Positions 1 to 12,864 of a stretch of DNA of 64,000 nucleotides are shown here, piece by piece. A program made the position numbers and the translations under genes. Under the pieces are notes generated by a model, which was not told where the DNA came from, did no database searches, and saw nothing but the letters and a program-made list of their open reading frames with translations. The stretch is from Myxococcota bacterium. GTDB lineage: Bacteria; Myxococcota_A; UBA9160; SZUA-336. The stretch covers positions 71,321 through 135,320 of the forward strand of contig DATJZP010000061.1 of the NCBI GenBank assembly GCA_035498875.1, written 5' to 3'. Position 1 is the first letter of the stretch. Every line of letters begins with the position of its first letter.

Positions 1-1182
1 CGGGCGCAGCATGAACACCCCGATCGAGCCGGTGAAGGTCGCGGGCTCGGCCACGATGGCGGTCGCGGCGCTGGCCACGTAGTAGCCGCCCGAGGCCGCG
101 GCGTCGGCCATCGAGACCACGATCGGCTTCTTGTCGCGCACGCGCTTCACCGCACGCCAGATCCGGTCCGAAGCCTGCGTCCCGCCGCCGGGTGAGTTGA
201 CGCGAAACACCACGGCTTTGATCTCGTCGTCCTTGGCCGCGGCGTCGAGCGCCTGCTCGGTCTCGTCGGCGGTGAAGAGCTTCTGCACCGAGCGGCTGCG
301 CTCGTCCACGATCGTGCCGTCGCCGAACACGAGCGCGATGCGCGGGCCCTTGCGCAGGCCGAGCGAGCTCGCGTCGGTGCGTTGGTACGCGTCGGCCTCG
401 ACTTCCTTGCCACCCGGGAAGTCACCCTTCTCGAGCGCCTCCTTGCGCCCGGCGATCGCGTCGGCGAGGCCGGCGTCGACGAGCTCCTGTGGCGTGCCCG
501 GCACGGACTGGAACAGCGCGCGCACCTTCTCGCCGCTGAGTGCGCGGCCCGAGGCGATGCCGTCGACGAGCTGCGCGAACACGCCGTCGATGAGCGCGTC
601 GGCGTTCTCGCGCGCCTTCGGGCTCATCTGGCGCGCGGCGAACTGCTCGACCGCCGACTTGTACTCGCCCACGCGCGAGTACTCCACGCGCACGCCGAGC
701 TTCTCGAGCATGCCCGCCAGGTGGAGGAACTGACCCGCCACGCCGCCCAGCGGCGCGAGCGTGCCGGGGTCGACCAGCACGCGGTTCGCGGCCGAGGCGA
801 GAAACAGCTCGCGCGTGCCGTTCAGGCTGGTCTCGTCGACCAGCGCGACCACGCGTTTGCCGGAGCTGCGCAGCTTGGACAAAGCGTCGCGCAGCTCTTG
901 CAGCCGGGCGTAGCCGATGCGCAGCGCCTTGATGTGCACGAGCACGCCGTCGACGCGCGTGTCGGCGGCCACCATGTCGAGCAAGAGCAGGATCGTCGGC
1001 AGCGCCGGACCGCGCGCGGTGAGCTGGCTGATCAGATCGCGCGGCGGCGCCTCTTCGAGGTCGCCCTCGAGCTCGAGCACGAGCACCGAGTGATCGGGCA
1101 GGTGGTGGCGTGCGGACCACACCGCGAGCCCGATCATGACCACGACCGCGAGCACGACCAATGCGATCAGCGAACGGCGCAT
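1..1182 (-). CDS. sppA: signal peptide peptidase SppA (S49 family), C-terminus cut by window start
   Basis: The reverse-strand translation from the ATG at 1182 reads MRRSLIALVVLAVVVMIGLAVW... (N-terminal TM helix). Later segments SMADAAASGGYY and VFRVNSPGG are typical of S49 ClpP-fold peptidases. It is absent from the ORF track because it runs off the window. Confidence 0.8.
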   Translation of the reverse strand, partial: MRRSLIALVVLAVVVMIGLAVWSARHHLPDHSVLVLELEGDLEEAPPRDLISQLTARGPALPTILLLLDMVAADTRVDGVLVHIKALRIGYARLQELRDALSKLRSSGKRVVALVDETSLNGTRELFLASAANRVLVDPGTLAPLGGVAGQFLHLAGMLEKLGVRVEYSRVGEYKSAVEQFAARQMSPKARENADALIDGVFAQLVDGIASGRALSGEKVRALFQSVPGTPQELVDAGLADAIAGRKEALEKGDFPGGKEVEADAYQRTDASSLGLRKGPRIALVFGDGTIVDERSRSVQKLFTADETEQALDAAAKDDEIKAVVFRVNSPGGGTQASDRIWRAVKRVRDKKPIVVSMADAAASGGYYVASAATAIVAEPATFTGSIGVFMLRP

Positions 1183-1254
1183 GCGTCTCCCATCACGTCT
1201 CGCCTCACGGTCGTGTGTCAATCGCCGCACGGCGCTGCCCGATCCGTGAGCGAG

Positions 1255-2838
1255 ATGCGCGAAGTCTACATCGCTGCCGTCGGACTCACCAAGGTCGACC
1301 TGACCGGGAGTGTCTTCGGCAACGTCTTCGATCTGTTCCAGAGTGCGTATCGGCGCGCGCTCGCCGATTCCCCGGTGCGCGAGTTCGACGCCGTGCAGGT
1401 CGGGATCATGGACGCCGAGGAGTTCGAGAACCGGGCGAACATCGCCACCAAGATCGTCGATCGGCTCGGACTGGTGGGCGTGCCCGCGGTCCGCTCGGAG
1501 ACGGCCTCGTCGACCGGCGCCGCCGCCTTCCACGAGGCCTGTTACAAGATCCGCTCCGGCGCCGCTTCGAGCGTTCTGGTGGTCGCGGGTGAGCGCATGA
1601 AGACGGTCACGACTCAGGTGGCGACCGAGATCATGTCGAAGACCGTCGATCCGGTGGAGCGCCGCTTCGGCTTCACCATGCCCGCGCTGATCGCGCTCGT
1701 GACTCAGGCCTTCTTCGGCCGCCACGGCGTGCGCGGCGAGCGTGTCGCCGACGTGCTCTCGCGACTCATGTTTCGCGCGCACGCGCTCGGCGCCGACAAC
1801 CCGCTGGCCGCGTTCGCGGGCAAGCCCGAGCCGATCGCGGCCTACTTCGACCGCAGCAAGAACCTGCCGGTGGCGACGCCGCTGCGGCGCAAGGACTGCT
1901 CGCCGATCTGCGACGGCGCGGCGGCGATCATCCTGACCGACCGCCCGCAGCCGGTGCGCGTGGCGGGGCTGGGCGCGGCCACCGACACGTCGTCGCTCCT
2001 GGACCGGGTCGCACTCGACTCACTGCCGGCGACGCGGCGCGCCGCCGCCTTCGCCTGGCGCGAGGCCGGCGTGGCCGACCCGCGCGCGCTCGAGGGGCTG
2101 GTGCTCGAGTCACACGACGCCTTCAACAGTCTCCTGCCGGTGAACCTGGTCGACCTGGGCCTGTGCGACCCGGAGCAGGCGCTCGAGGCGCTGGTGGGTT
2201 CGGCGCGGGGCGGTGAGCCGCCGCTCGATCCGTATGCGCACCCCTGGAGCGGGCCGGCCGGCGCGCGGCCCACGAACCTCTCGGGCGGGCTGAAGTCGCG
2301 CGGCCACCCGGTGGGCGGCACGGGCCTGTTCCAGCTGGCCGAGGTCTATCTCCAGCTCGCGCGCCGCTTCCCGAACCCTCGCGCGCAGGCCGCGGACGCG
2401 CGCTTGGGGCTGTCTCACTCGATCGGCGGACCGGGCAACAACGTGTATGTGACCCTGCTCGAGCGCGCCGACAGCAAGCGCAAGCGCGCGGCCGACCTGC
2501 CGCGGCCCGAGCGCCGCGCGGCTCCGCGCGCGCCTCAGCTCGCGCCGCTGGCGCTGCACGGCCAGGAGGCGCTGGTCGAGGCCGCGACCACGATCCACGT
2601 CACGGCCTCGGGCGAGTCACCGATCCACGTGGCGCTGTTGTCGGTGGGCGGGCGGCGCGTATTCGCGAAGTTCGACGCTCCGGGCAGCGACGGCGAAGAG
2701 CTCGCGCAGTCGCTCCCGGGCCGGCGCGCGCGCTTCCTGGTGACCGACCAGCGCGAGCACCGCTTCGAGCTGCTCGACGGCGCGGTCAGTTTGCCGGCGG
2801 AACCAGCCGGTGCAGCGAGATCTCGCGTGCGCAGTTGA
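1255..2838 (+). CDS. thiolase-like protein (SCP-x/lipid-transfer type) with a C-terminal OB-fold/DUF35-like domain
   Basis: Real-looking protein starts at MREVYIAAVGLTKVD (ATG 1255; alternative GTG 1246). It carries thiolase-like Cys/His/Gly-rich segments. The long 382..2838 ORF upstream of 1255 is R/A-rich GC-frame noise. Confidence 0.7.
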   Translation: MREVYIAAVGLTKVDLTGSVFGNVFDLFQSAYRRALADSPVREFDAVQVGIMDAEEFENRANIATKIVDRLGLVGVPAVRSETASSTGAAAFHEACYKIRSGAASSVLVVAGERMKTVTTQVATEIMSKTVDPVERRFGFTMPALIALVTQAFFGRHGVRGERVADVLSRLMFRAHALGADNPLAAFAGKPEPIAAYFDRSKNLPVATPLRRKDCSPICDGAAAIILTDRPQPVRVAGLGAATDTSSLLDRVALDSLPATRRAAAFAWREAGVADPRALEGLVLESHDAFNSLLPVNLVDLGLCDPEQALEALVGSARGGEPPLDPYAHPWSGPAGARPTNLSGGLKSRGHPVGGTGLFQLAEVYLQLARRFPNPRAQAADARLGLSHSIGGPGNNVYVTLLERADSKRKRAADLPRPERRAAPRAPQLAPLALHGQEALVEAATTIHVTASGESPIHVALLSVGGRRVFAKFDAPGSDGEELAQSLPGRRARFLVTDQREHRFELLDGAVSLPAEPAGAARSRVRS

Positions 2839-4048
2839 GGCGCACCGGCGGGCCGGCGACGCCCAGCCCGCGATTCACGTAGAGCAGGGCGCCCGTCTCG
2901 TCGTCGCGGAACAAGCCGCGCGTCCAGCGCGAGATCAGCCGCGAGACATTGTGCTGGTGCGCCAGCGGAAGCGCGATCTGGCCGCCGTGCGTGTGACCCG
3001 CGAGCGACAGCGGGTAGCCCAGGCGCGCGGCCTCCTTGAAGTAGCTCGGGCGGTGGATCAGGAGCAGCTTGGGCAGCTCGGCCGGCACCTCGGCCGCGAG
3101 CTTCGCCAGCGCGCCGTGCGTCGCGTCGCGCTCGGACCAGCCGTGGCCCGGGTCCTCGATGCCGACGAGCGCGAGCGCCGCGCCCGCGATCTCGACCCGC
3201 GTCCACTCGTCGCGCAGCACGCGGATCTTGGTGAGTGACTCGAGCCCGCGCGCGACCTCGTCCACGCCGGTGTAGACGTCGTGGTTGCCGAGCACGCAGT
3301 ACACGCCGAGCGGCGCGTCGAGCGCCGCCAGCTCGCGACAGCCCTCCTCGATGAACGACGGATCGAAGTCGAACACGTCGCCCGTGATCACGATCAGGTC
3401 CGCCTCGAGCGCGTTCACTTTGGCGCAAAGCTCGCGCAGGAGCGGCGCGCGCAGCTGCAGGCCGATGTGCAGGTCGGAGATCTGCGCCACGCGCAGGCCC
3501 GCGAGCGCGTCCGGCAGGTTCGGGAGCGGAAGATCGACGCGATCCACCTCGACCCGCCGCTGGCCCACCAGGTAGCCCCAGAAGATCGAGCCGAAGCCGA
3601 GCGCGACGGCGCCGCCGCCACCCGCGATCAGCAGGTCGCGCGCCACGTGACCGAGCGATGCGTTCGCGAGCGCGCCGAGCCAGGCCAGCGGCCCGAACAG
3701 CAGGAACACGAGCGCCAGCAAGGGCCCCGTGACCAGCGCCGCCACGCTCGCCACCAGCCACACGCGGCCCAGGTGGTACCCGGCCAGCCCGCGCCGCGCG
3801 ACGCGCGGCAGAGTCAGGAGCGTCGCGGCGTTCGCGAGAGTGAGTCCCGCGACGGTCAGCGCGAAGCCGGCCAGCCCGAGGCTGCCCGCGCCGACCGCGC
3901 GCAACAGCCACTCGACGATCAGCGCCTCCGAAGCTGCGCCGATCACGAGCGCGCTGAAGCGCGCGTTCTTCAGCGCGAGCCGCCCACCACCCGACATCTT
4001 CCGCGCTGCCACGCCCGAGAAGGTGGCGGTTCCCGCCCCGTCGCTCAA
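2786..4048 (-). CDS. membrane-anchored metallophosphoesterase (calcineurin-like, YkuE-type)
   Basis: N-terminal hydrophobic TM segments are followed by phosphoesterase signatures: ISDLHIG, ITGDVFD, GNHD and GHTHGGQ. The start overlaps the stop of the upstream leuA-like gene by 4 bp. Confidence 0.8.
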   Translation of the reverse strand: MSDGAGTATFSGVAARKMSGGGRLALKNARFSALVIGAASEALIVEWLLRAVGAGSLGLAGFALTVAGLTLANAATLLTLPRVARRGLAGYHLGRVWLVASVAALVTGPLLALVFLLFGPLAWLGALANASLGHVARDLLIAGGGGAVALGFGSIFWGYLVGQRRVEVDRVDLPLPNLPDALAGLRVAQISDLHIGLQLRAPLLRELCAKVNALEADLIVITGDVFDFDPSFIEEGCRELAALDAPLGVYCVLGNHDVYTGVDEVARGLESLTKIRVLRDEWTRVEIAGAALALVGIEDPGHGWSERDATHGALAKLAAEVPAELPKLLLIHRPSYFKEAARLGYPLSLAGHTHGGQIALPLAHQHNVSRLISRWTRGLFRDDETGALLYVNRGLGVAGPPVRLNCAREISLHRLVPPAN

Positions 4049-5202
4049 GCGGCCGCCCCCACGCAGATCGCGATCACGTCGCGATCGCCGACTTCACCGC
4101 GCTGGTCCGCCAGGCGTTGGAAGCGCTCGAAGGCGCGCTCCAGCGCCGGTCCGTCCAGCGCGAAGCCCAGCTCGCGCGCGCGAAACGCGAAGCCGTGCCG
4201 CCCCGACAGCTTGCCCAGCACGATCTCGGTGCCCGTGGGGTGACCGATCTCGGCCGGGTCGATCGCCTCGTAGTTGGCGCGGTGCTTCAAGACGCCGTCC
4301 TGGTGGATGCCCGAAGCGTGGCGGAACGCGTTCCGGCCCACGATCGCCTTGTTCGGCGGCACGGCGACACCGGAGTGTCTCGCGACCGCCTGCGACACGC
4401 GGTAGATGCCCTTCGCGTCCACGCCGCTGCGCACGCCCAGTGACTCGCCGTGCACTCGGATCGCCATCACCACCTCCTCGAACGCGGTGTTGCCTGCGCG
4501 CTCGCCGAGCCCGTTCACCGCCAGCTCGACCTGCCGCGCGCCCGCCGCGATCGCGGCCAGCGAGTTGGCGGTGGCCATGCCCAGGTCGTCCTGGCCGTGG
4601 AAGCTCGCAGTGACTCCGGCCAGCTCGGGCACGCGGCGGAACATGTCGCGGAACAGCTCCGCCACCTGATCCGGCCGCGCCCAGCCCACCGTGTCGGGCA
4701 GGTTGATCGTCGAGGCTCCCTCGGCGATCGCAGCGCGTACGACGCGCGCCACGAACTCGGGATTCGATCGTGTGGCGTCCATGCAGCTGAACTCGACGTT
4801 CGCGGTATGACTGCGGGCGCGCGCGACCGCCGCCTGCGCCATCGCCACGACCTCGTCCGCGCCGCGCCGCAGCTGGTGCGCCAGGTGGATCTCGGAGCTC
4901 GACAGGAACACGTGCAGGCGCGGATCGCGCGCACGCGCGATCGCCGCCCAGGTCGCGTCGACCTCCGCCGGCACGGCGCGCGTGAGCGCGCAGACCGTGG
5001 CGTTCCGCACGTGGCCGGCCACCGCCGCGACCGAGGCGTGCTCGCCCGGCGACGAGCTCGGGAAGCCCGCCTCGATCACGTCGACCGACATCGCCTCGAG
5101 CAGCTCCGCGATCTCGACCTTCGCGGTACGCGAAAAGAAGACCCCGGCCGCCTGCTCGCCATCTCGCAAGGTCGTGTCGAACACGACCACCTTGTCGCTC
5201 AT
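4045..5202 (-). CDS. short-form LeuA-family synthase (2-isopropylmalate/homocitrate/citramalate synthase-like)
   Basis: MSDKVVVFDTTLRDGEQ opening with the HMGL-like TIM-barrel motif, about 385 aa with no LeuA regulatory domain. The track start at 5259 is an upstream in-frame extension. Confidence 0.8.
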   Translation of the reverse strand: MSDKVVVFDTTLRDGEQAAGVFFSRTAKVEIAELLEAMSVDVIEAGFPSSSPGEHASVAAVAGHVRNATVCALTRAVPAEVDATWAAIARARDPRLHVFLSSSEIHLAHQLRRGADEVVAMAQAAVARARSHTANVEFSCMDATRSNPEFVARVVRAAIAEGASTINLPDTVGWARPDQVAELFRDMFRRVPELAGVTASFHGQDDLGMATANSLAAIAAGARQVELAVNGLGERAGNTAFEEVVMAIRVHGESLGVRSGVDAKGIYRVSQAVARHSGVAVPPNKAIVGRNAFRHASGIHQDGVLKHRANYEAIDPAEIGHPTGTEIVLGKLSGRHGFAFRARELGFALDGPALERAFERFQRLADQRGEVGDRDVIAICVGAAA

Positions 5203-5259
5203 CGCTTTCTCCTCTGAGCCTCGCCGTCGAAGCGAAAGCCGGAGAGCAGCTCTGGGCAC

Positions 5260-5294
5260 AAAAAAACCTCTCCGGCCGGCTTCGGCGGGAGAGG
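5260..5294 (-). terminator. rho-independent terminator/attenuator hairpin (minus strand) between candidate leader ORF and leuA-like start
   Basis: Minus-strand RNA reads CCUCUCC-CGCCGAAGCCGGCCGG-AGAGG followed by UUUUUUU. That gives a 7-bp outer stem plus 4-bp inner stem with an AAGC loop, then a U7 tract. It lies 58 nt upstream of the leuA-like ATG. Confidence 0.6.
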
Positions 5295-5318
5295 CCCGAT
5301 TTGGCTTGGCCCGGCGCT

Positions 5319-5402
5319 CTAGTCCGAGAGCGCAGGGTGGACCCCACCCGCCCCGGTAAGGAGGAGCGCCAGAGCGCGCTGGGTGTGGGTCCGATTCGTC
5401 AT
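5319..5402 (-). CDS. candidate Leu-rich leader peptide (27 aa) MTNRTHTQRALALLLTGAGGVHPALSD
   Basis: The small ORF starts 18 nt after the GNAT stop and ends 25 nt before the terminator hairpin. It contains LALLL encoded by CTG GCG CTC CTC CTT, which are rare Leu codons for this GC3-biased genome. A weak AAGG Shine-Dalgarno sits upstream. Confidence 0.35.
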   Translation of the reverse strand: MTNRTHTQRALALLLTGAGGVHPALSD

Positions 5403-5419
5403 TGGCACAGCACCTTACG

Positions 5420-6376
5420 CTAGAAACGGTCGGACGTCCAATAAGTCGCGGGCGGGCGAACGATCAGCGCGTCGAGCAGCTGCGCGTCGCTCGTCGACCC
5501 GGGAAGCGCCGCGATCTCGGCCAGTGACCCGCGGTCGAGCACGCGCCACATCGGCGAGGGATCCGCAGCCAGGCCGATCGCGATGCCGCGGCGCTCGAGC
5601 GCGTCGGCCAGCTCGGCGTCGCGCACGAACGGCACGTACAGCGCGCGTTCGCCGCTCGCGGCCCCCGCCAAGAGCGCCGCGAGTGACTCGGCGCCGCCCG
5701 GCGCGCGCGCGTACTCGAGCGCGCGCAGCCGGCCGTTGAAGCTCGCGCAGCGGAGGTAGGCGTCGAGCGCGCTGGCGCGCTCGCACAGCAGGAAGCGCTC
5801 CGACGGCGTGCCGGCCGTGCGCAGCTGGCCGCGCCAGTAGCGCGCGTCGCGCACGGTGGGGCCGGAGAGCGGTGCGACGAAGGCGTCGTAGAGGGCGCTC
5901 ACGCGCTCGAGGTCGGCGGCGGTGAACGGGCGGACCGCCGCTGCCGGCGCGGCGTCGGGCCGCGCGCGAGACAGCCGCAGCAGCGGCGCGGGAATCTTTC
6001 GCCAGCCGAGCCGCTCGTAGAGCGGCGCGACCGGCGCCGCGAACAGGAGCGAGATCGCCATCCCGCGGGCCCGCATGCGCTCGAGCGCGCGCTCCAGCAA
6101 GTCACTCGCGAGGCCCCCGCCGCGCTGACTCGCGTGCGTCGCGACCGAGCCGATCCCGCCGAGCCGCACGGCGCGGCCCCGCAGCCGGATCGTCTTCGCG
6201 AACACCTGCACGCAGGCCACCGGCGCGTCGCCGTCCAGCGCGAGCAGGAAATCGCCGTAGGCGAACTCCGGGTCGAAGTCCATGTAGCGCTCGAACAGCT
6301 CGCGGATCCCGAACGCGTGCTCGAGCAGGTCGAGCACGGCGCCGCGGTCCGCGCGCTGCATCTCCCGGAACCGCAC
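5420..6376 (-). CDS. GNAT family N-acetyltransferase (Eis-like, GNAT plus SCP2-like C-terminal)
   Basis: GNAT core segments RGGGLASDLLERALERMRARG. Length 318 aa. Sits between the leuB-like and leuA-like genes. Confidence 0.7.
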   Translation of the reverse strand: MRFREMQRADRGAVLDLLEHAFGIRELFERYMDFDPEFAYGDFLLALDGDAPVACVQVFAKTIRLRGRAVRLGGIGSVATHASQRGGGLASDLLERALERMRARGMAISLLFAAPVAPLYERLGWRKIPAPLLRLSRARPDAAPAAAVRPFTAADLERVSALYDAFVAPLSGPTVRDARYWRGQLRTAGTPSERFLLCERASALDAYLRCASFNGRLRALEYARAPGGAESLAALLAGAASGERALYVPFVRDAELADALERRGIAIGLAADPSPMWRVLDRGSLAEIAALPGSTSDAQLLDALIVRPPATYWTSDRF

Positions 6377-6383
6377 GCGGCCT

Positions 6384-7400
6384 CTAGGGCTGCGCCTTCG
6401 CGAGTGAGTCGGCGACGACCGCGGTGAAGCCGCGCGTGTCGAGCACGCCGCCCACGTCGCGCGTGGAGCGACCCTCGGCGATCGCGCCCAGCACCGCGGC
6501 GCGCAGCGCGTTGCCCTGCTCGAGCCGGCCCACGTGGTCGAGCAAGAGCCCGAACGCGAGCAGCGCGGCAGTCGGGTTGGCGATGCCCTTGCCCGCGATG
6601 TCGGGCGCGGTGCCGCCCGCGGGGTCGAACATGGCCACGTCGATCTTGCCGTCGCGCGTGAACGAGTAGTTTCCGCTCGCGCCCGTGCCGAGGCTCCCGA
6701 CCAGCCCGCACGCCATGTCCGACAGGAAGTCGCCGTACTCGTTCAGCACCAGCACCACCTGGTAGTCGTTCGGCTTCAAGATGATCTTGGCGAGCAGCGC
6801 GTCGAACAGCTCCACGCGGTGTCTCACGTCGGGATAGCCCTTCGCCACGTCGCGCACGATCGCCTCGAAGAAGCCGTCGGTGGCGCGCTGGATCGTGTGC
6901 TTCGACGACGAAGTCACCGACAGCCCGTACTTGCGCGCGAAGTCGAAGGCGAAGCGCGCGGCCTCGGTGCAGGGCCGGCGCTCCACGATGCGCAGCGAGA
7001 CCGCGACGTCCTCGCCGATGCGCTGGCCCGGGTCGTCGTAAGTGCCGCCGGTGGCCACGCGCACGATGTCGAGCGCGACGTTCTGCTTGAAGTTCGACGA
7101 GATGCCCAGGATCGAGAGCACCGGCCGGTGAATCACCGAGAAGTCGAGCCGCTGGCGCAGCACCGCGTTGGGACTCTCCGCGGCAGTCACGGTCGGGTAC
7201 TTCAGCCCGAGCTTGGTGTCTCGCAGAGAGGCCTCGGCGCGGTCGTAGGTGTCGGCGTGCTGCTTGCGACCTTCGAGCGACAGGTCGATCGGGATGAACT
7301 CGACGTCGAGCCCGAGCGCGCGCGCCACGGTGTGCACGGATTCGCGGAGCTCGGGCCCGATCCCGTCGCCCAGGAGCTCGGTGATGCGCAGTCGTTCCAT
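6384..7400 (-). CDS. isocitrate/3-isopropylmalate dehydrogenase family protein (LeuB-like/homoisocitrate DH-like)
   Basis: MERLRITELLGDGIGPE opening and NEYGDFLSDMACGLVGSLG, matching the beta-decarboxylating dehydrogenase signature. Length 338 aa. Confidence 0.8.
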   Translation of the reverse strand: MERLRITELLGDGIGPELRESVHTVARALGLDVEFIPIDLSLEGRKQHADTYDRAEASLRDTKLGLKYPTVTAAESPNAVLRQRLDFSVIHRPVLSILGISSNFKQNVALDIVRVATGGTYDDPGQRIGEDVAVSLRIVERRPCTEAARFAFDFARKYGLSVTSSSKHTIQRATDGFFEAIVRDVAKGYPDVRHRVELFDALLAKIILKPNDYQVVLVLNEYGDFLSDMACGLVGSLGTGASGNYSFTRDGKIDVAMFDPAGGTAPDIAGKGIANPTAALLAFGLLLDHVGRLEQGNALRAAVLGAIAEGRSTRDVGGVLDTRGFTAVVADSLAKAQP

Positions 7401-7435
7401 GAACCGACTATCGGCCTGCTAGACTCGATTGCGCA

Positions 7436-7753
7436 ATGTCCGAGCTGCGAAGTCTCTACCAACAGGCGTTCGATCTGATGGCGGCGGGGAAATATCCCGA
7501 GGCCGTCGGCGCCTACCAGAAGGTGCTGGCCGCCGACCGCAGCTTCGGGCTCGCCTATCAGGGCCTGGCCGAGGTCTACAGCCGCATGAACCGGCTCGAC
7601 GACGCCGTCGCGACGATCAAGAAGGCGATCGAGTGCGACCCCGACGAAGGGCTCTTCCACACGAGTCTCTCGCGTTTTCTCCAGCGGCAGGGGAAGATTC
7701 CCGAAGCGGAGGAGGCGGCGGCCGTCGCGGCTCGCAAGAGCGGGCGCCACTAG
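7436..7753 (+). CDS. TPR-repeat protein
   Basis: Three TPR-like repeats ([12 protein letters not shown]..., [31 protein letters not shown], ...). Length 105 aa. Confidence 0.6.
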
Positions 7754-7782
7754 CGGACGTCTCCGCCGCGGGGGATGCGGCG

Positions 7783-8672
7783 GTGAAGTCACTCGCGCTG
7801 GCGGCGCTCGTGGGCGTCATTCACGTCCACCACGCGCCGTCTCACGACAGCTCGGCTCCGTTCGAGGCCGTGCTCGCGGCGGCGGACCAGGCCGGCCTCG
7901 ACTTCGTGGTGCTGACCGATCACGCCGACGTGGCCGTGCCGTCCCCGCTGCCGGGAGTCGAGCACGCGGGCGTGCGCGTCGCGCCGAGCGGCCGGCCGAT
8001 CCTGGTCCTGGTGGGCGCCGAGCTCGCGACCGAGGACGGGCACCTGCTGGCGCTCCAGGTCGATCACGCCGTGCCCGCGCTCGGGCGTCCCGGCCGGGAC
8101 GTGATCGCCGAGATCCACGCCCAGGGCGGCTTCGCGGTCGTTCCGCACCCGTTCAGTCACGGTGGCTGGCGCGACTGGGGCGCCGACTTCGACGGCCTCG
8201 AGGTGCAGAACAGCGCCTCGGACTTCACGCGCCTGTACGGGCCGCTCCTGCCGCTGCGGCTGTTGCGGTTCGCGCTCGCGCCCGACGCCGAGCTCGCCGA
8301 GCTGTGGCGCCGTCCGGAGCAGGAGCTCGCGCAGTGGGACGCGCTGCTCGCGGCGGGCCGGCGCGTGCCGGGCTTCGCCGGCGTCGATGCACACCAGAAT
8401 GTGTCGCTCGGCGGTTGGCAGCTCGATCCCTACGCGCAGATGTTCCGCGGCGCGCGCATGGTCTGCCCGCAGGCCCGGCTCGAGCCCGCCCTGGTCTGGC
8501 GGCTGTTGCGCAGCGGCGCGTGCGTGATCCGCTTCGCCTTCTACGAGCCGCGTGCGGGCGAGGCGGTGGCGGTGACCAAGCCCTCGGGCCGGGTCGAGCT
8601 GCAGCTCGACGGCGGCGCGCGCGTGCTCGAGCTGCGCAATCCGAGCTTCGCGCCGCCGCTATACTCCGATCC

Positions 8673-8676
<4 letters not shown>
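7783..8676 (+). CDS. PHP (polymerase/histidinol-phosphatase) domain metal-dependent phosphoesterase
   Basis: [10 protein letters not shown] is an HxH motif and LTDHAD follows. In-frame GTG start at 7783. The ORF track start at 7429 is an out-of-frame readthrough of the TPR gene. Confidence 0.65.
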
Positions 8677-9679
<1,003 letters not shown>

Positions 9680-9683
<4 letters not shown>

Positions 9684-10099
9684 GCGCGCGCGGCCTGCGC
9701 TTCGAGTGCACCGGCTGCGGCGGCTGCTGCACCGCGCGCGGCGAGTACGCGCACGTGTACCTGAACCCGGACGAAGCCGAGGCGCTGGCCCAGGAGCTCG
9801 AGCTCCCGCTGCGCGAGTTCCGGCGCCGTTACACGTTCAAGGACGAATACGGCTACACCCAGCTCCGCTTCGACGACGCGACCTGCGTCTTTCTCGAGCG
9901 CGGCACCCGCCGCTGCACCGTCTACGGCGCGCGCCCGACCCAGTGCCGCACCTTCCCGTTCTGGCGCGACCTGGTGGCCGACGGACGCTGGACCGACGAG
10001 GCGCGCGCGCTGTGCGAGGGCATCGGCCGCGGGCCGCTCCACCGCATGAACGACGTCGAGGCTCGCATGCTCGAGATGGAGCTCGCGGACGAGGGCTAG
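9680..10099 (+). CDS. YkgJ/UPF0153 family Fe-S/zinc cluster protein
   Basis: CTGCGGCC plus downstream Cys ([26 protein letters not shown]) match the CxxCxxCC family. GTGA overlap with the ltaE stop. Confidence 0.6.
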
Positions 10100-10123
10100 C
10101 CGCCGGGCTATCCTAGAGGCGCG

Positions 10124-10795
10124 ATGTCCCGCACGACCGACCCGCGTGGCGCCGGCTCCTGGGGCGCGGTCGCGCAGCATTTGCGCGAGACGGCGCGCCT
10201 GCGCGCCGAGCTGCCACCCGAGCGCGTCGCGCTCCAGCACCAGGTCGTGCAGCTGGCCGGGCGCCTCTCGGGCGCGCGCGCGCTCGACGTCGGCTGCGGC
10301 ACCGGCGCGCTGGCGCGCCAGCTCGCCGCGGCGGGGGCGCAGGTGGTGGCGATCGACGTCTCGCCCGCGGCCATCCACGCCGCCGACCACGAGGCCAAGG
10401 AGTCGGGTGAGACGCCGCTGCCGCAGTTCCAGGTGGCCGACCTGCTCGCGCCGGCCTCGCTGCCGCGCGGCCCGTTCGAGCTCGTGACCTGCATGCTGGC
10501 GCTGCACGACAGCCCCGATCCCGAGCGCGCGCTGCGCGCGATCGCGAAGTCACTCCACCCGCTCGGGCGCCTGGTGCTGGCGCTCGAGCACCCGTGGGGC
10601 GTGCGCGCTCCCGCGGCCGGGCCACTGGCGAGCCTGCCCGAGCTGCTCGGCGCGCTGCGCGCCGCGGGCCTGCGTCTCATCGATGCCGCCGAGCCCGAGC
10701 CTGCGGGCTCGCCCAAGGGCGAGCGCCCGCACTACCTGGTGATCGCCGCCGAGCGCACGCGCAAGCGACCGCGGAACCGCGGCACCAGTCACTGA
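10124..10795 (+). CDS. class I SAM-dependent methyltransferase
   Basis: LDVGCGTGALARQLA is SAM-binding motif I. Length 223 aa. Confidence 0.75.
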   Translation: MSRTTDPRGAGSWGAVAQHLRETARLRAELPPERVALQHQVVQLAGRLSGARALDVGCGTGALARQLAAAGAQVVAIDVSPAAIHAADHEAKESGETPLPQFQVADLLAPASLPRGPFELVTCMLALHDSPDPERALRAIAKSLHPLGRLVLALEHPWGVRAPAAGPLASLPELLGALRAAGLRLIDAAEPEPAGSPKGERPHYLVIAAERTRKRPRNRGTSH

Positions 10796-10840
10796 AATCC
10801 GGCCGCCGCTGGTACACTCTCCCGAGCGGAGGTACCCAAG

Positions 10841-11365
10841 ATGTCTCGAAGCGAACGGCTCGCATCGCTGACTCGCCGGGAGCTGTTGTGGACCGGCTCG
10901 CTGGCTCTCGGCGCGGCCGCGCTCCTGCCGCGGCTCGCGCGCGCGCACGAGGGTCACGACGACTACGCGCTGCCGCAGGCCACGCAGGACGCGCTCACCA
11001 AGGAGCGGCTGGTGCACGTCTCGCCGCTGAAGTCGAACGGCAAGGAGAGCCGCTGTCACGCCGAGGTCTGGTACTTCTTCGACCGCGGCAGCGTCGTGAT
11101 CGCCACCGCGACCAAGGGCTGGAAGGTGCGCGCGGCGAAGCTCACCAGCCCCAAGGCGCGGCTCTGGATCGGCAGCTACGGCACGGGCGCGCCCACCTTC
11201 CTGGCCAGCGCCGCGATCGACGGCGACCCGGCGACGTTCGAGCGGCTGCTCGCCGCCTACGGCACGCGCTACCCCGACGAGTGGGGCAAGTGGAAGCCGC
11301 GCTTCGAGTCGAGTCACGCCGACGGCTCGCGCACGCTGGTTCGCTATACACCGATCGGTGCATAG
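10841..11365 (+). CDS. Tat-signal exported hypothetical protein
   Basis: TRRELLWTGSLALGAAALLPRLARA is a twin-arginine signal peptide. AGGAGG-like RBS upstream. No recognisable catalytic motif. Confidence 0.6.
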   Translation: MSRSERLASLTRRELLWTGSLALGAAALLPRLARAHEGHDDYALPQATQDALTKERLVHVSPLKSNGKESRCHAEVWYFFDRGSVVIATATKGWKVRAAKLTSPKARLWIGSYGTGAPTFLASAAIDGDPATFERLLAAYGTRYPDEWGKWKPRFESSHADGSRTLVRYTPIGA

Positions 11366-12864
11366 CGATAGCCGAGCGCCTCGGCCACGTGCGCGCTTGC
11401 GAGTGACTCGGCGCCGTCCAGGTCGGCGAGCGTGCGCGCGACGCGCAGGCTGCGCACGAACGCGCGCATGCTGAGCCCGAGCGCGCCGACCGAGCGCTCG
11501 AGCAGCGCGCGCGCCGCGGCGTCGAGCGCGCAGTGCTCGGAAAGCTTCGAGTGCGGGAGCTCGGCGTTGCTCTGCCACGGCGACCCGGCGAAGCGCCGCG
11601 CCTGGCGCGCGCGCGCCGCCACCACCCGCTCGCGCACGCGCGCGCTCCCCTCGCCCGAGCGGCCGCTCGCGAGCATGTCGCGCCACGGCACGGGCGCTAC
11701 CGCGAGGTGCAGGTCGATCCGGTCGAGCAGCGGCCCCGACAGCTTGCCGCGGTAGCGCGCGACCGCGGGCTCGAGACAGACACACTCGCGCGCGCTGACT
11801 CCGCGCCAGCCACAGGGGCAGGGATTCATCGCGGCCACGAGCTGGAAGCGCGCCGGCAGGCGCGCGCTGCCGTGCGCGCGCGCTACGCGGATCTCGCCCT
11901 CCTCGAGCGGCTGGCGCAGCGCCTCGAGCACCGGGCGTCGGAACTCGGGCAGCTCGTCCAGGAACAGGACGCCGCGGTGCGCGAGCGAGATCTCGCCCGG
12001 GCGCAGCGGCCGGCCGCCGCCCGCCATGCCGGCGTCGGAGATCGTGTGGTGCGGCGCGCGGAAGGGCGGCTCCACCAACAGCGAGTCACTCGTGAGCGCG
12101 CCGGCGGCGCTGTGGATGCGCGTCGCCTCGAGCGCGGCCGCGAGCTCGAGCGGCGGCAGGATGCCGGGCAGCCGGCGCGCGAGCAGCGTCTTGCCGCTGC
12201 CCGGCGGCCCCACGAAGAGCAGCCCGTGACCGCCCGCCGCCGCCACCTCGAGCGCGCGCTTGGCGGCCTCCTGGCCGTGGACCTCGGCCAGATCGGGCGG
12301 CGGCGCGCCCGCTGCGAGTGAGTCGCGCGCCGGGCCGGGCGTCTCGAGCGCGCGCTCACCGCGCAGCCAGGCCAGCACCTCCCCCAGGCTCTCGGCGCCG
12401 AGCGCGCCGAGCTCCCCGGCCAGCGCGGCCTCGCCCAGGTTCCCGCGCGCGACCACCACCTGGCGAATCTCCGCGCCATCGGCGGCGCCCAGCATCGCCA
12501 GCACGCCGCGCACTGGCCGCAGCCCGCCGTCCAGGCCGAGCTCGCCCAGAAACAACGTGCGCGCCAGCCGCGCCGCCTCGAGCTCGACGCGCGTGCCCGC
12601 GATCGCGAGCGCGATCGGCAGGTCGAGCGCGGAGCCGACCTTGGGCAGGCCCGTCGGCGCGAGATTCACGGTCACGCGACCCGGCGGAAACTCGAGACCC
12701 GACTGGCGGAACGCGGCGCGGATCCGCTCGCGGCTCTCGAACACGACGCGGTCCGCCTGGCCTACGATGTGAAACGACGGCAACCCCGCGCCGGCCTCGA
12801 CCTCGACCGAGACACGCACGCCCTCGATCACGTGGAGCGTGGCGCCGAACACGCGCAGCAACAC
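11344..12864 (-). CDS. YifB/ComM family Mg-chelatase-like AAA+ ATPase
   Basis: N-terminal Lon-like domain (VFGATLHVIEGVRVSVEVEAG...), Walker A GPPGSGKT, LFLDELPEF, and a C-terminal Mg-chelatase domain. The track start at 13308 is an R-rich spurious extension. GTG start at 12864. Confidence 0.85.
   Translation of the reverse strand: MLLRVFGATLHVIEGVRVSVEVEAGAGLPSFHIVGQADRVVFESRERIRAAFRQSGLEFPPGRVTVNLAPTGLPKVGSALDLPIALAIAGTRVELEAARLARTLFLGELGLDGGLRPVRGVLAMLGAADGAEIRQVVVARGNLGEAALAGELGALGAESLGEVLAWLRGERALETPGPARDSLAAGAPPPDLAEVHGQEAAKRALEVAAAGGHGLLFVGPPGSGKTLLARRLPGILPPLELAAALEATRIHSAAGALTSDSLLVEPPFRAPHHTISDAGMAGGGRPLRPGEISLAHRGVLFLDELPEFRRPVLEALRQPLEEGEIRVARAHGSARLPARFQLVAAMNPCPCGWRGVSARECVCLEPAVARYRGKLSGPLLDRIDLHLAVAPVPWRDMLASGRSGEGSARVRERVVAARARQARRFAGSPWQSNAELPHSKLSEHCALDAAARALLERSVGALGLSMRAFVRSLRVARTLADLDGAESLASAHVAEALGYRYAPIGV

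Follow-up and report, generated by a model that had tools for sequence, protein, structure and literature searches.

A predicted leucine-responsive attenuator with a leader peptide upstream of a short-form leuA gene in the Myxococcota

The question raised by this locus is what fills the seemingly "empty" gap of about 250 nucleotides (nt) upstream of a short leuA gene in a genome of the Myxococcota. The gene lies in a stretch of 64,000 nt (GenBank assembly GCA_035498875.1, contig DATJZP010000061.1, positions 71,321 to 135,320), referred to as the window, and encodes a homologue of 2-isopropylmalate synthase (IPMS), here called LeuA. The original prediction, made from the letters of the window, had proposed that the gap contains a leucine-rich leader open reading frame (ORF) and a terminator, in the classic layout of leader peptide, terminator and leuA that is associated with attenuation. 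We find this interpretation to be largely right, with corrections to the codons and the promoter. Sequence comparisons indicate that the gap most probably holds a transcription attenuator, in which a ribosome on the leader peptide would sense charged tRNA-Leu and thereby control the short-form leuA gene. The case is carried by the parts of the element, their conservation, three covarying alternative helices, the codon bias of the leader and the family of the gene that follows.

A leucine-rich leader in front of leuA

The argument starts from the following parts, with positions counted from the first letter of the window.

5420-6376, minus strand: upstream GNAT gene (Pfam Acetyltransf_9), stop codon TAG at 5422-5420
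5412..5441, minus strand: promoter-like site (-35 TTGGAC/TGGACG at 5441-5435, spacer of 17-18 nt, -10 TAAGGT at 5417-5412)
5402-5319, minus strand: leader ORF of 27 codons and TAG, MTNRTHTQRALALLLTGAGGVHPALSD (ATG at 5402, TAG at 5321-5319)
5366-5358, minus strand: regulatory codons CTC CTC CTT, with an additional CTG at 5372-5370
5260..5266, minus strand: U7 tract of the predicted intrinsic terminator
4045..5202, minus strand: short-form 2-isopropylmalate synthase homologue of 385 amino acids (HMGL-like PF00682 and HCS_D2 PF22617)

The 27-codon ORF with the peptide core LALLL was confirmed on the minus strand upstream of the leuA-like gene, as was a hairpin with a U7 tract between this ORF and leuA. 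The distances given for the GNAT stop codon to the ORF (18 nt), the ORF to the hairpin (about 25 nt) and the hairpin to leuA (58 nt) were right to within 1-4 nt, with 57 nt between the U7 tract and the leuA ATG at 5202. The leucine codons of the leader are CTG, CTC, CTC, CTT and CTC. Among the 83 ORFs of 15-45 codons that start with ATG on either strand of the window, three or more consecutive leucine codons occur in the leader ORF only, and the U7 tract (A7/T7) is the sole A/T homopolymer of at least six nucleotides in the 64 kb, the expected number being about 0.09 at a GC content of 71%. Since the two features are each unique in the window and yet both directly precede the LeuA homologue, their coincidence is not explained by chance.

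The element is furthermore conserved. Scans of species-representative genomes and metagenomes, together with look-ups of seven further clade members, provided 13 other loci in which a short-form LeuA orthologue (62-84% identity) is preceded by enough upstream DNA, giving 14 loci with the window. All of these, from metagenome-assembled genomes (MAGs) of Myxococcota and metagenomes, contain a module with the same order of parts: an ORF of 20-38 codons, a leucine run up to CTT, 11 nt, the segment GGCGGG(A/U)G(A/G)GG, the stop codon and a hairpin with the consensus CC(C)UCUCCCGCCG-loop-CGGCCGGAG(A/G)GG. The small ORF, the leucine run and the hairpin are thus conserved upstream of the orthologues in 14 of 14 loci, as the original prediction would have it. 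The module was not found at long-form LeuA loci from the same scans (about 50% identity). In one of the 14 loci (L168) the leader is preceded by an unusually long gap of 1.1 kb, which contains a GC-rich short tandem repeat of the type (CGCGCC/TGCGCC)n at about 2580-2700.

The genes around the module are not conserved, which bears on the alternative that the hairpin and the U7 tract are the terminator of an upstream unit of GNAT and Iso_dh genes and that the leucine-rich ORF is a chance frame. The GNAT gene does lie on the same strand, with its stop codon about 125 nt upstream of the element. However, a GNAT gene is located upstream in the syntenic subclade only. The upstream genes elsewhere encode a large AAA_16/Trans_reg_C regulator, a DSBA protein, a glycosyltransferase, GST, DJ-1/PfpI, a PNP oxidase or a divergently oriented hydrolase, and the downstream genes likewise differ or converge. 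The module also precedes the LeuA orthologue in loci with an unrelated or divergent upstream gene (L003, L004, L081, L084, L085, L165, L167 and L168). It occurs only once in the window, and its antiterminator, described below, is conserved with covariation. Because the module accompanies LeuA while the flanking genes change, the element belongs to the LeuA gene and not to GNAT. The idea of a mere GNAT terminator, which the original prediction had named as the finding that would speak against attenuation, is contradicted by these loci, and we assign it next to no probability.

Another line of evidence comes from the leucine codons. The codon reference was a set of 36 proxy genes from the window, in which leucine makes up 11.4% of the codons and the leucine codons are divided mainly between CTG (52%), CTC (40%), TTG (5%) and CTT (2.1%). 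In the 14 leaders, leucine accounts for 25% of the codons overall (19-35% per leader) and CTT for 26 of the 94 leucine codons (28%), which corresponds to a 13-fold enrichment. The codons of the LALLL run had been described as uncommon, which is correct for CTT but not for CTC, a common codon in these genes. The final codon of the leucine run is CTT in every locus (5358-5360 on the minus strand in the window), and at least three of the last five codons before the GGCGGG segment, named region 2 below, encode leucine in all of them. Changes between leaders inside the run are mostly synonymous (CTG/CTC/CTT), with a glycine codon, GGC, interrupting the run in four loci, and the leader peptide outside the run is variable in length and sequence. 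The invariance of CTT may reflect slow wobble decoding or else a constraint at the RNA level. No tRNA genes were found in the 64-kb window.

The leader also has a conserved upstream border. A sigma-70-like site is present at a fixed position in all 14 loci, with a spacer of 16-17 nt, a TAnnnT-like -10 element and, in 12 of them, a -35 element of the form TTGAC(G/A). In the window, the promoter-like site overlaps the stop codon of the GNAT gene and stops 9 nt short of the leader ATG, and across the loci the -10 element and the leader start codon are separated by 6-12 nt, a short gap that in most leaders contains no sequence resembling a Shine-Dalgarno (SD) motif. These observations argue for a separate promoter of the leuA unit. 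Because the conserved promoter-like site abuts the start codon and leaves no room for an SD motif, the leader mRNA is probably leaderless, or nearly so. A simple scan for promoters and terminators in positions 1-12000 found nothing. The promoter of the window is too weak for its strict rules and the hairpin was missed because of an internal C.C mismatch, so that the miss does not amount to absence.

Mutually exclusive helices and the predicted switch

An attenuator of this type needs an antiterminator that competes with the terminator, and the RNA segments concerned are listed here in the order of transcription.

5359..5367, minus strand: region 1, the leucine-codon stretch G CUC CUC CU, forming the anti-antiterminator with region 2 (5' part)
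5339..5352, minus strand: region 2, GGCGGGUGGGGUCC, inside the leader ORF, partner of region 1 or region 3
5310..5337, minus strand: spacer hairpin CCC.GCGCUCU-CGGACU-AGAGCGC.GGG over the leader stop codon, in the interior of the antiterminator loop
5283..5297, minus strand: region 3, 5' arm of the terminator, GGGCCUCUCC-C-GCCG, the most conserved stretch of the alignment
5282-5279, minus strand: terminator loop AAGC
5267..5278, minus strand: region 4, 3' arm of the terminator, CGGC-C-GGAGAGG

Region 3 is complementary to region 2 and to region 4, and the helices 1:2, 2:3 and 3:4, named after the regions that pair, are mutually exclusive. All three were scored on an alignment of the 14 sequences, in addition to folds of the individual sequences, with shuffles (n = 500) and slid segments as controls. 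The antiterminator helix 2:3 (5352-5339 with 5297-5284) has 91.8% of its cells paired in the 14 sequences, and 14 cells show changes in both partners, distributed over three pairs (G-C/U-A and C-G/U-A); none of the 500 shuffles does as well, and the slid controls reach at most 61%. A mutually exclusive antiterminator, which the original prediction had suggested should be sought by folding, is thus present and conserved in all 14 loci with compensatory changes. For the terminator helix 3:4, 93.8% of the cells are paired, four pairs are changed on both sides and the covariation score is 0.238, values that none of the 500 shuffles reaches (slid controls at most 65%). The whole hairpin (5297-5267, with the core stem at 5294-5267) has a folding free energy of -23.7 kcal/mol, with z = -3.4 relative to shuffles. 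The 1:2 helix has 93.9% of its cells paired, which is equalled by 9 of the 500 shuffles, and it contains a compensation from U-A to G-C at columns 20:36, where three leaders have GGC for CTC. Over the helices, the slid controls stay at or below 75%, and RNAalifold predicts both 1:2 and 3:4 unguided.

The arrangement of these segments is as constrained as their pairing. The start of CTCCTT is exactly 11 nt from region 2 in all 14 loci, and the leader's stop codon is placed between regions 2 and 3 in every locus. Within region 3, CCUCUCCCGCCG is nearly invariant in the alignment because two partners, regions 2 and 4, must both pair with it. The altered region 3 of L165 (CCCCUCCCGCC) has matching changes both in region 2 (GGCGGGAGGGG) and in region 4. 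A further segment upstream, GGACCCACACC (5392-5382), can also pair with region 2 in the window and its closest relatives. The sequence of the spacer hairpin is conserved in the closest relatives only, and some hairpin is usually present at this position elsewhere.

We propose that these parts operate as follows. Transcription would begin at the sigma-70-type promoter that ends just before the leader ATG, and the leader ORF would be translated from a leaderless or near-leaderless mRNA. When Leu-tRNA is plentiful, the ribosome would pass the leucine codons and region 2 and reach the stop codon; region 2 would then be covered or paired again with region 1, the 3:4 helix would form, and the hairpin and the U7 tract would end transcription before leuA. 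When Leu-tRNA is scarce, the ribosome would stall on CUC-CUC-CUU, which is region 1 itself. Region 2, which begins 8-14 nt downstream of the codon in the A site, would then still be unpaired when region 3 is transcribed. The 2:3 helix would form first and block the terminator, and RNA polymerase would read into leuA and, in the subclade of the window, also into the phosphoesterase gene that follows it.

We also considered the possibility that the structured 5' leader responds to an RNA-binding protein or a small ligand, in the manner of a riboswitch, and that the small ORF is incidental. The conserved part of the peptide (LLL-x-x-AG-x-G) largely coincides with the RNA-pairing segments, so that its conservation is not independent evidence for translation. 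Open frames are furthermore cheap at a GC content of 71%, with a probability of about 0.6 for 27 codons, and mutations of leader codons in Streptomyces leuA and ilvB departed from the prediction of classical attenuation, according to the work as cited in PMC1262725. Against this, an in-frame start codon follows the -10 element at the same short distance in all 14 loci and the stop codon always falls between regions 2 and 3, the variation in the leucine run is mostly synonymous, and the run varies in length and layout and yet is always rich in leucine, which RNA pairing alone does not need. Nor is there a conserved unpaired core that resembles a ligand pocket, or a match in Rfam. We therefore regard a sensor of this kind as very unlikely, and return to the attenuator that reads the leucine codons through translation.

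The effect of the ribosome was modelled by holding a footprint of 27 nt unpaired, with the transcript ending just ahead of region 4. If the A site holds the first leucine codon of the final run, the predicted probability of the antiterminator, P(2:3), is 0.76-1.00 in 14 of 14 loci, with a mean of 0.97. When no ribosome is present, the 1:2 helix wins in five loci, including the window, where P(2:3) = 0.02. The folding energies are compatible with the attenuator model, short of proof.

Several observations weigh against an attenuator of this kind, and are brought together here. With CUU in the A site, the mean P(2:3) is 0.31, a lower value that arises because the assumed +12 footprint covers part of region 2. 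Without a ribosome and with region 4 left out, 2:3 is still predicted in 9 of the 14 loci, and the equilibrium contrast between stalled and unstalled transcripts is clear in only 5 of the 14. With region 4 included, the terminator wins under any mask, with P(term) of at least 0.94 in most loci. Because equilibrium folding with region 4 favours the terminator under any mask, the switch, if our model is right, must be kinetic, and the outcome must depend, as it does in the classical attenuators of trp and leu, on which partner of region 3 is available first. A kinetic attenuator would be expected to fold in this way at equilibrium, so that the result with region 4 speaks neither for nor against the model. 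Furthermore, the promoter-like site of the window is the weakest of the 14 (7/12 match), and four of the leaders have GTG or TTG as the start codon; such starts are poor for leaderless initiation in E. coli. The sequences also form few subclades, and hence only a small number of the compensatory events are independent. A T-rich tail follows the hairpin in 12 of the 14 loci, with none in L081 and L168. As to the activity of the enzyme, engineered truncations of IPMS are impaired (PMC9860122), and the natural short form is therefore a putative IPMS.

The two loci that lack a T-rich tail (L081 2926-2962 and L168 2886-2935) retain a leader ORF along with region 2 and the hairpin, have no U tract, and contain CUCUCUCGCC in region 3. 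Termination may be non-canonical in these loci, or the switch may act in another mode. They raise the alternative that the leader ORF and the helices are real and that the output is, wholly or in part, the translation of leuA, the stability of the mRNA or Rho-dependent termination, for example by way of a hairpin that sequesters the SD motif. The segments that matter for this alternative are located in the 5' untranslated region (5' UTR) of leuA.

5236..5247, minus strand: CUCUCCGGC motif repeated downstream, in the 5' UTR of leuA, with complementarity to region 4 and in part to the SD motif
5209..5214, minus strand: leuA SD motif GAGGAG, 6 nt from the ATG

An SD motif of the GGAG type is present 5-7 nt upstream of the leuA start in all 14 loci, and in the predicted folds it is mostly paired (unpaired probability 0.00-0.43). 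Several other loci have UUUCGUGU-type tails only, and in the subclade of the window the downstream motif could pair with both region 4 and the SD motif. Its duplex with region 4 has -20.9 kcal/mol in the window, a value that 0 of 200 shuffles reach. Against this alternative, the hairpin is canonical and followed by U7 or U8 in the window and its closest relatives, and forced pairing in partition-function folding gives a mean SD accessibility of 0.15 with 2:3 (ON) and 0.18 with 3:4 (OFF), which leaves a relay to the SD motif unsupported. All things considered, we find an output of this type unlikely, and favor a switch that acts through termination of transcription.

The downstream motif deserves a description of its own. 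Located past the terminator, it repeats the CUCUCCGGC / CCUCCUCCGG motif for the third time and has equivalents in L001, L162-L164 and L166 that form duplexes of -19 to -26 kcal/mol with the 3' arm of the terminator. In L162-L164, it forms a hairpin of 10-11 base pairs that sequesters the SD motif, with a compensatory change. We considered a relay of five segments, in which the 2:3 helix frees region 4, region 4 takes up the downstream motif and the SD motif is released. This was dropped because forcing 2:3 brings no gain in SD accessibility and because the motif, kept in the subclade of the window, is inconsistent in the other subclade.

The short-form synthase and its neighbours

The gene behind the predicted attenuator encodes a protein whose best match in NCBIfam is the IPMS model NF002086, with 503 bits over model positions 4-381 of 516. 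The score is below the equivalog cut-off of 532 because the alignment spans only this part of the model. The C-terminal leucine-binding domain LeuA_dimer (PF08502) gave no Pfam match, and the protein ends at residue 385. Its closest solved structure is the construct of the catalytic domain of the IPMS from N. meningitidis (3RMJ, 339 bits), homocitrate and citramalate synthases score far below IPMS, and a 100%-identical protein from a Myxococcota MAG is annotated as 2-isopropylmalate synthase. The short-form clade contains at least 120 clusters with proteins of 359-425 amino acids (outliers of 288 and 473), which are at least 63% identical, and several of the clusters are named Myxococcota. These matches place the 385-residue protein closest to bacterial IPMS, with a predicted IPMS activity.

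Since the enzyme lacks the allosteric domain, the attenuator may be the main leucine control of this LeuA. A stronger version of this proposal holds that in this uncultured clade an IPMS that has lost its allosteric domain is placed under leucine control wholly by an attenuator, that a leaderless leader reads the charging of tRNA-Leu through the invariant and elsewhere hardly used CUU codon, and that in L081 and L168 the switch works without intrinsic termination. This version is offered tentatively, and we doubt that it will hold in full.

The local gene order is Iso_dh, GNAT, leader, LeuA and Metallophos, and no leuCD genes are located nearby. The last of these genes overlaps the stop codon of LeuA.

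2786..4048, minus strand: calcineurin-like phosphoesterase, start overlapping the LeuA stop by 4 nt, with weak similarity to LpxG/YaeI

A phosphoesterase gene follows LeuA in L001, L162, L163 and L166 and is absent from the other loci; in L164, the gene after LeuA has no Pfam match. The phosphoesterase is probably co-transcribed with LeuA, and would hence come under the leucine attenuator in the subclade of the window only. A phosphoesterase and a leucine attenuator make an odd functional pairing. L001, L162 and L163 share the order Iso_dh, GNAT, leader, LeuA and phosphoesterase, and L164 shares part of it. The Iso_dh-family gene itself (6384-7400, minus strand) scores far below all NCBIfam equivalog cut-offs: isocitrate dehydrogenase 195/510, LeuB 104/353 and homoisocitrate dehydrogenase 179/540.

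Comparison with known leucine leaders

Leader-peptide attenuation has mostly been documented in the Gammaproteobacteria, Firmicutes and Actinobacteria. A search of Rfam with positions 4000-8000 of the window (E<=10) gave no match to a leader family, including RF00512 Leu_leader, and L003 and L167 gave no match at E<=1. A covariance model built here, R1, separates the members of the family, with 72-101 bits, from the best non-members, with 12-32 bits, and a search with R1 of the window and 168 loci for a second copy of the element found none in the window. Matches of R1 on the minus strand and in L031 proved to be hairpin palindromes or coding sequence and were set aside. A literature search on the Myxococcota and Deltaproteobacteria, which did not take in the most extensive attenuator survey (Lopatovskaya et al., 2010), where an earlier mention may exist, found no prior description. 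What we describe is a textbook mechanism, as predicted here, in an RNA family that is lacking from Rfam and in the Myxococcota, combined with an IPMS that has no regulatory domain. It also corrects the annotation of operons and gene starts in the LeuA clade, where the gap upstream of LeuA is better regarded as regulatory. Three questions follow for future work: whether a leader peptide can drive attenuation from a leaderless mRNA, whether one rare synonymous codon, found in 14 of 14 lineages, sets the sensitivity of the switch, and whether transcriptional attenuation has replaced the lost allosteric feedback domain of the IPMS.

The nearest mechanistic counterpart is the leu attenuator of the enterobacteria (leuL, RF00512), for which the attenuation mechanism and the role of the rare leucine codons are established. 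Both systems have a short ORF with a leucine run that includes a rare codon, alternative helices of the 1:2, 2:3 and 3:4 type, and a GC-rich hairpin with a U tract before leuA. There is, however, no detectable similarity in sequence or structure. The operon here is a mono- or bicistronic unit with a short-form leuA, whereas it is leuABCD in the enterobacteria, the codons are CUC and CUU here and CUA there, and in the family described here the promoter abuts the start codon, in a Myxococcota host genome with a GC content of 71%.

The LEU element upstream of leuA in the Actinobacteria is a pseudoknot, in which the leucine run pairs with the SD motif of leuA and no obvious terminator is present (Seliverstov et al., 2005; PMC1262725). 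It shares with our element a leucine-rich leader before leuA and the participation of CU-rich leucine codons in RNA pairing, and it differs in that a canonical terminator and a chain of three helices are found here; the two have no sequence relationship. Likewise, attenuation mediated by an upstream ORF has been described for the ilvBNC leader of Corynebacterium (ilvB-II motif; PMC10272879), and a study on C. glutamicum ilvB cited there reports, in its title, that the leader peptide is formed without a ribosome-binding site (Morbach et al., 2000). Both concern genes for branched-chain amino acids, and as far as that title goes, the leader without a ribosome-binding site parallels the leader described here, which has no SD motif and abuts the promoter. 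The gene is nevertheless another one, the codons are a mixture of isoleucine, valine and leucine codons, and the RNA and the phylum are different.

Short IPMS proteins, natural or truncated by engineering, are known as well. The IPMS_Lepto LeuA2 and IPMS_Sufob models and the 3RMJ construct share with the protein of the window a TIM barrel and a post-HMGL subdomain without the leucine-binding domain. Because the window protein stays under the cut-off of either short-form model (230/500 and 318/600) and most resembles the long-form bacterial LeuA, the loss of the regulatory domain looks like an event that was independent of the known short forms.

Finally, leucine-rich ORFs were also found in front of full-length leuA genes, in a Leptospirales MAG (L007, 5678-5815, MSQTSGKLYLLGLLLSLLHIGPGL) and in two metagenome contigs (L128, 2113-2266, MNRRFLLSLSHEQLSGGLLLDLLLVRLG; L103, at about 2390-2505, ..TLRLALTLLLSGAIAQS), each followed by a clean hairpin and a U run. 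None of these three leaders was matched in Rfam. They share with our family the layout and the peptide core LLGLLLS/T, whereas their RNA segments are unrelated, LeuA is full length, and their R1 scores of 12-25 bits are far below those of the members. These leaders are likely to be parallel solutions and not members of the same RNA family. Since the R1 model picked up such unrelated-looking leaders before full-length leuA, we conclude that leucine leaders of this general design are widespread and under-catalogued.

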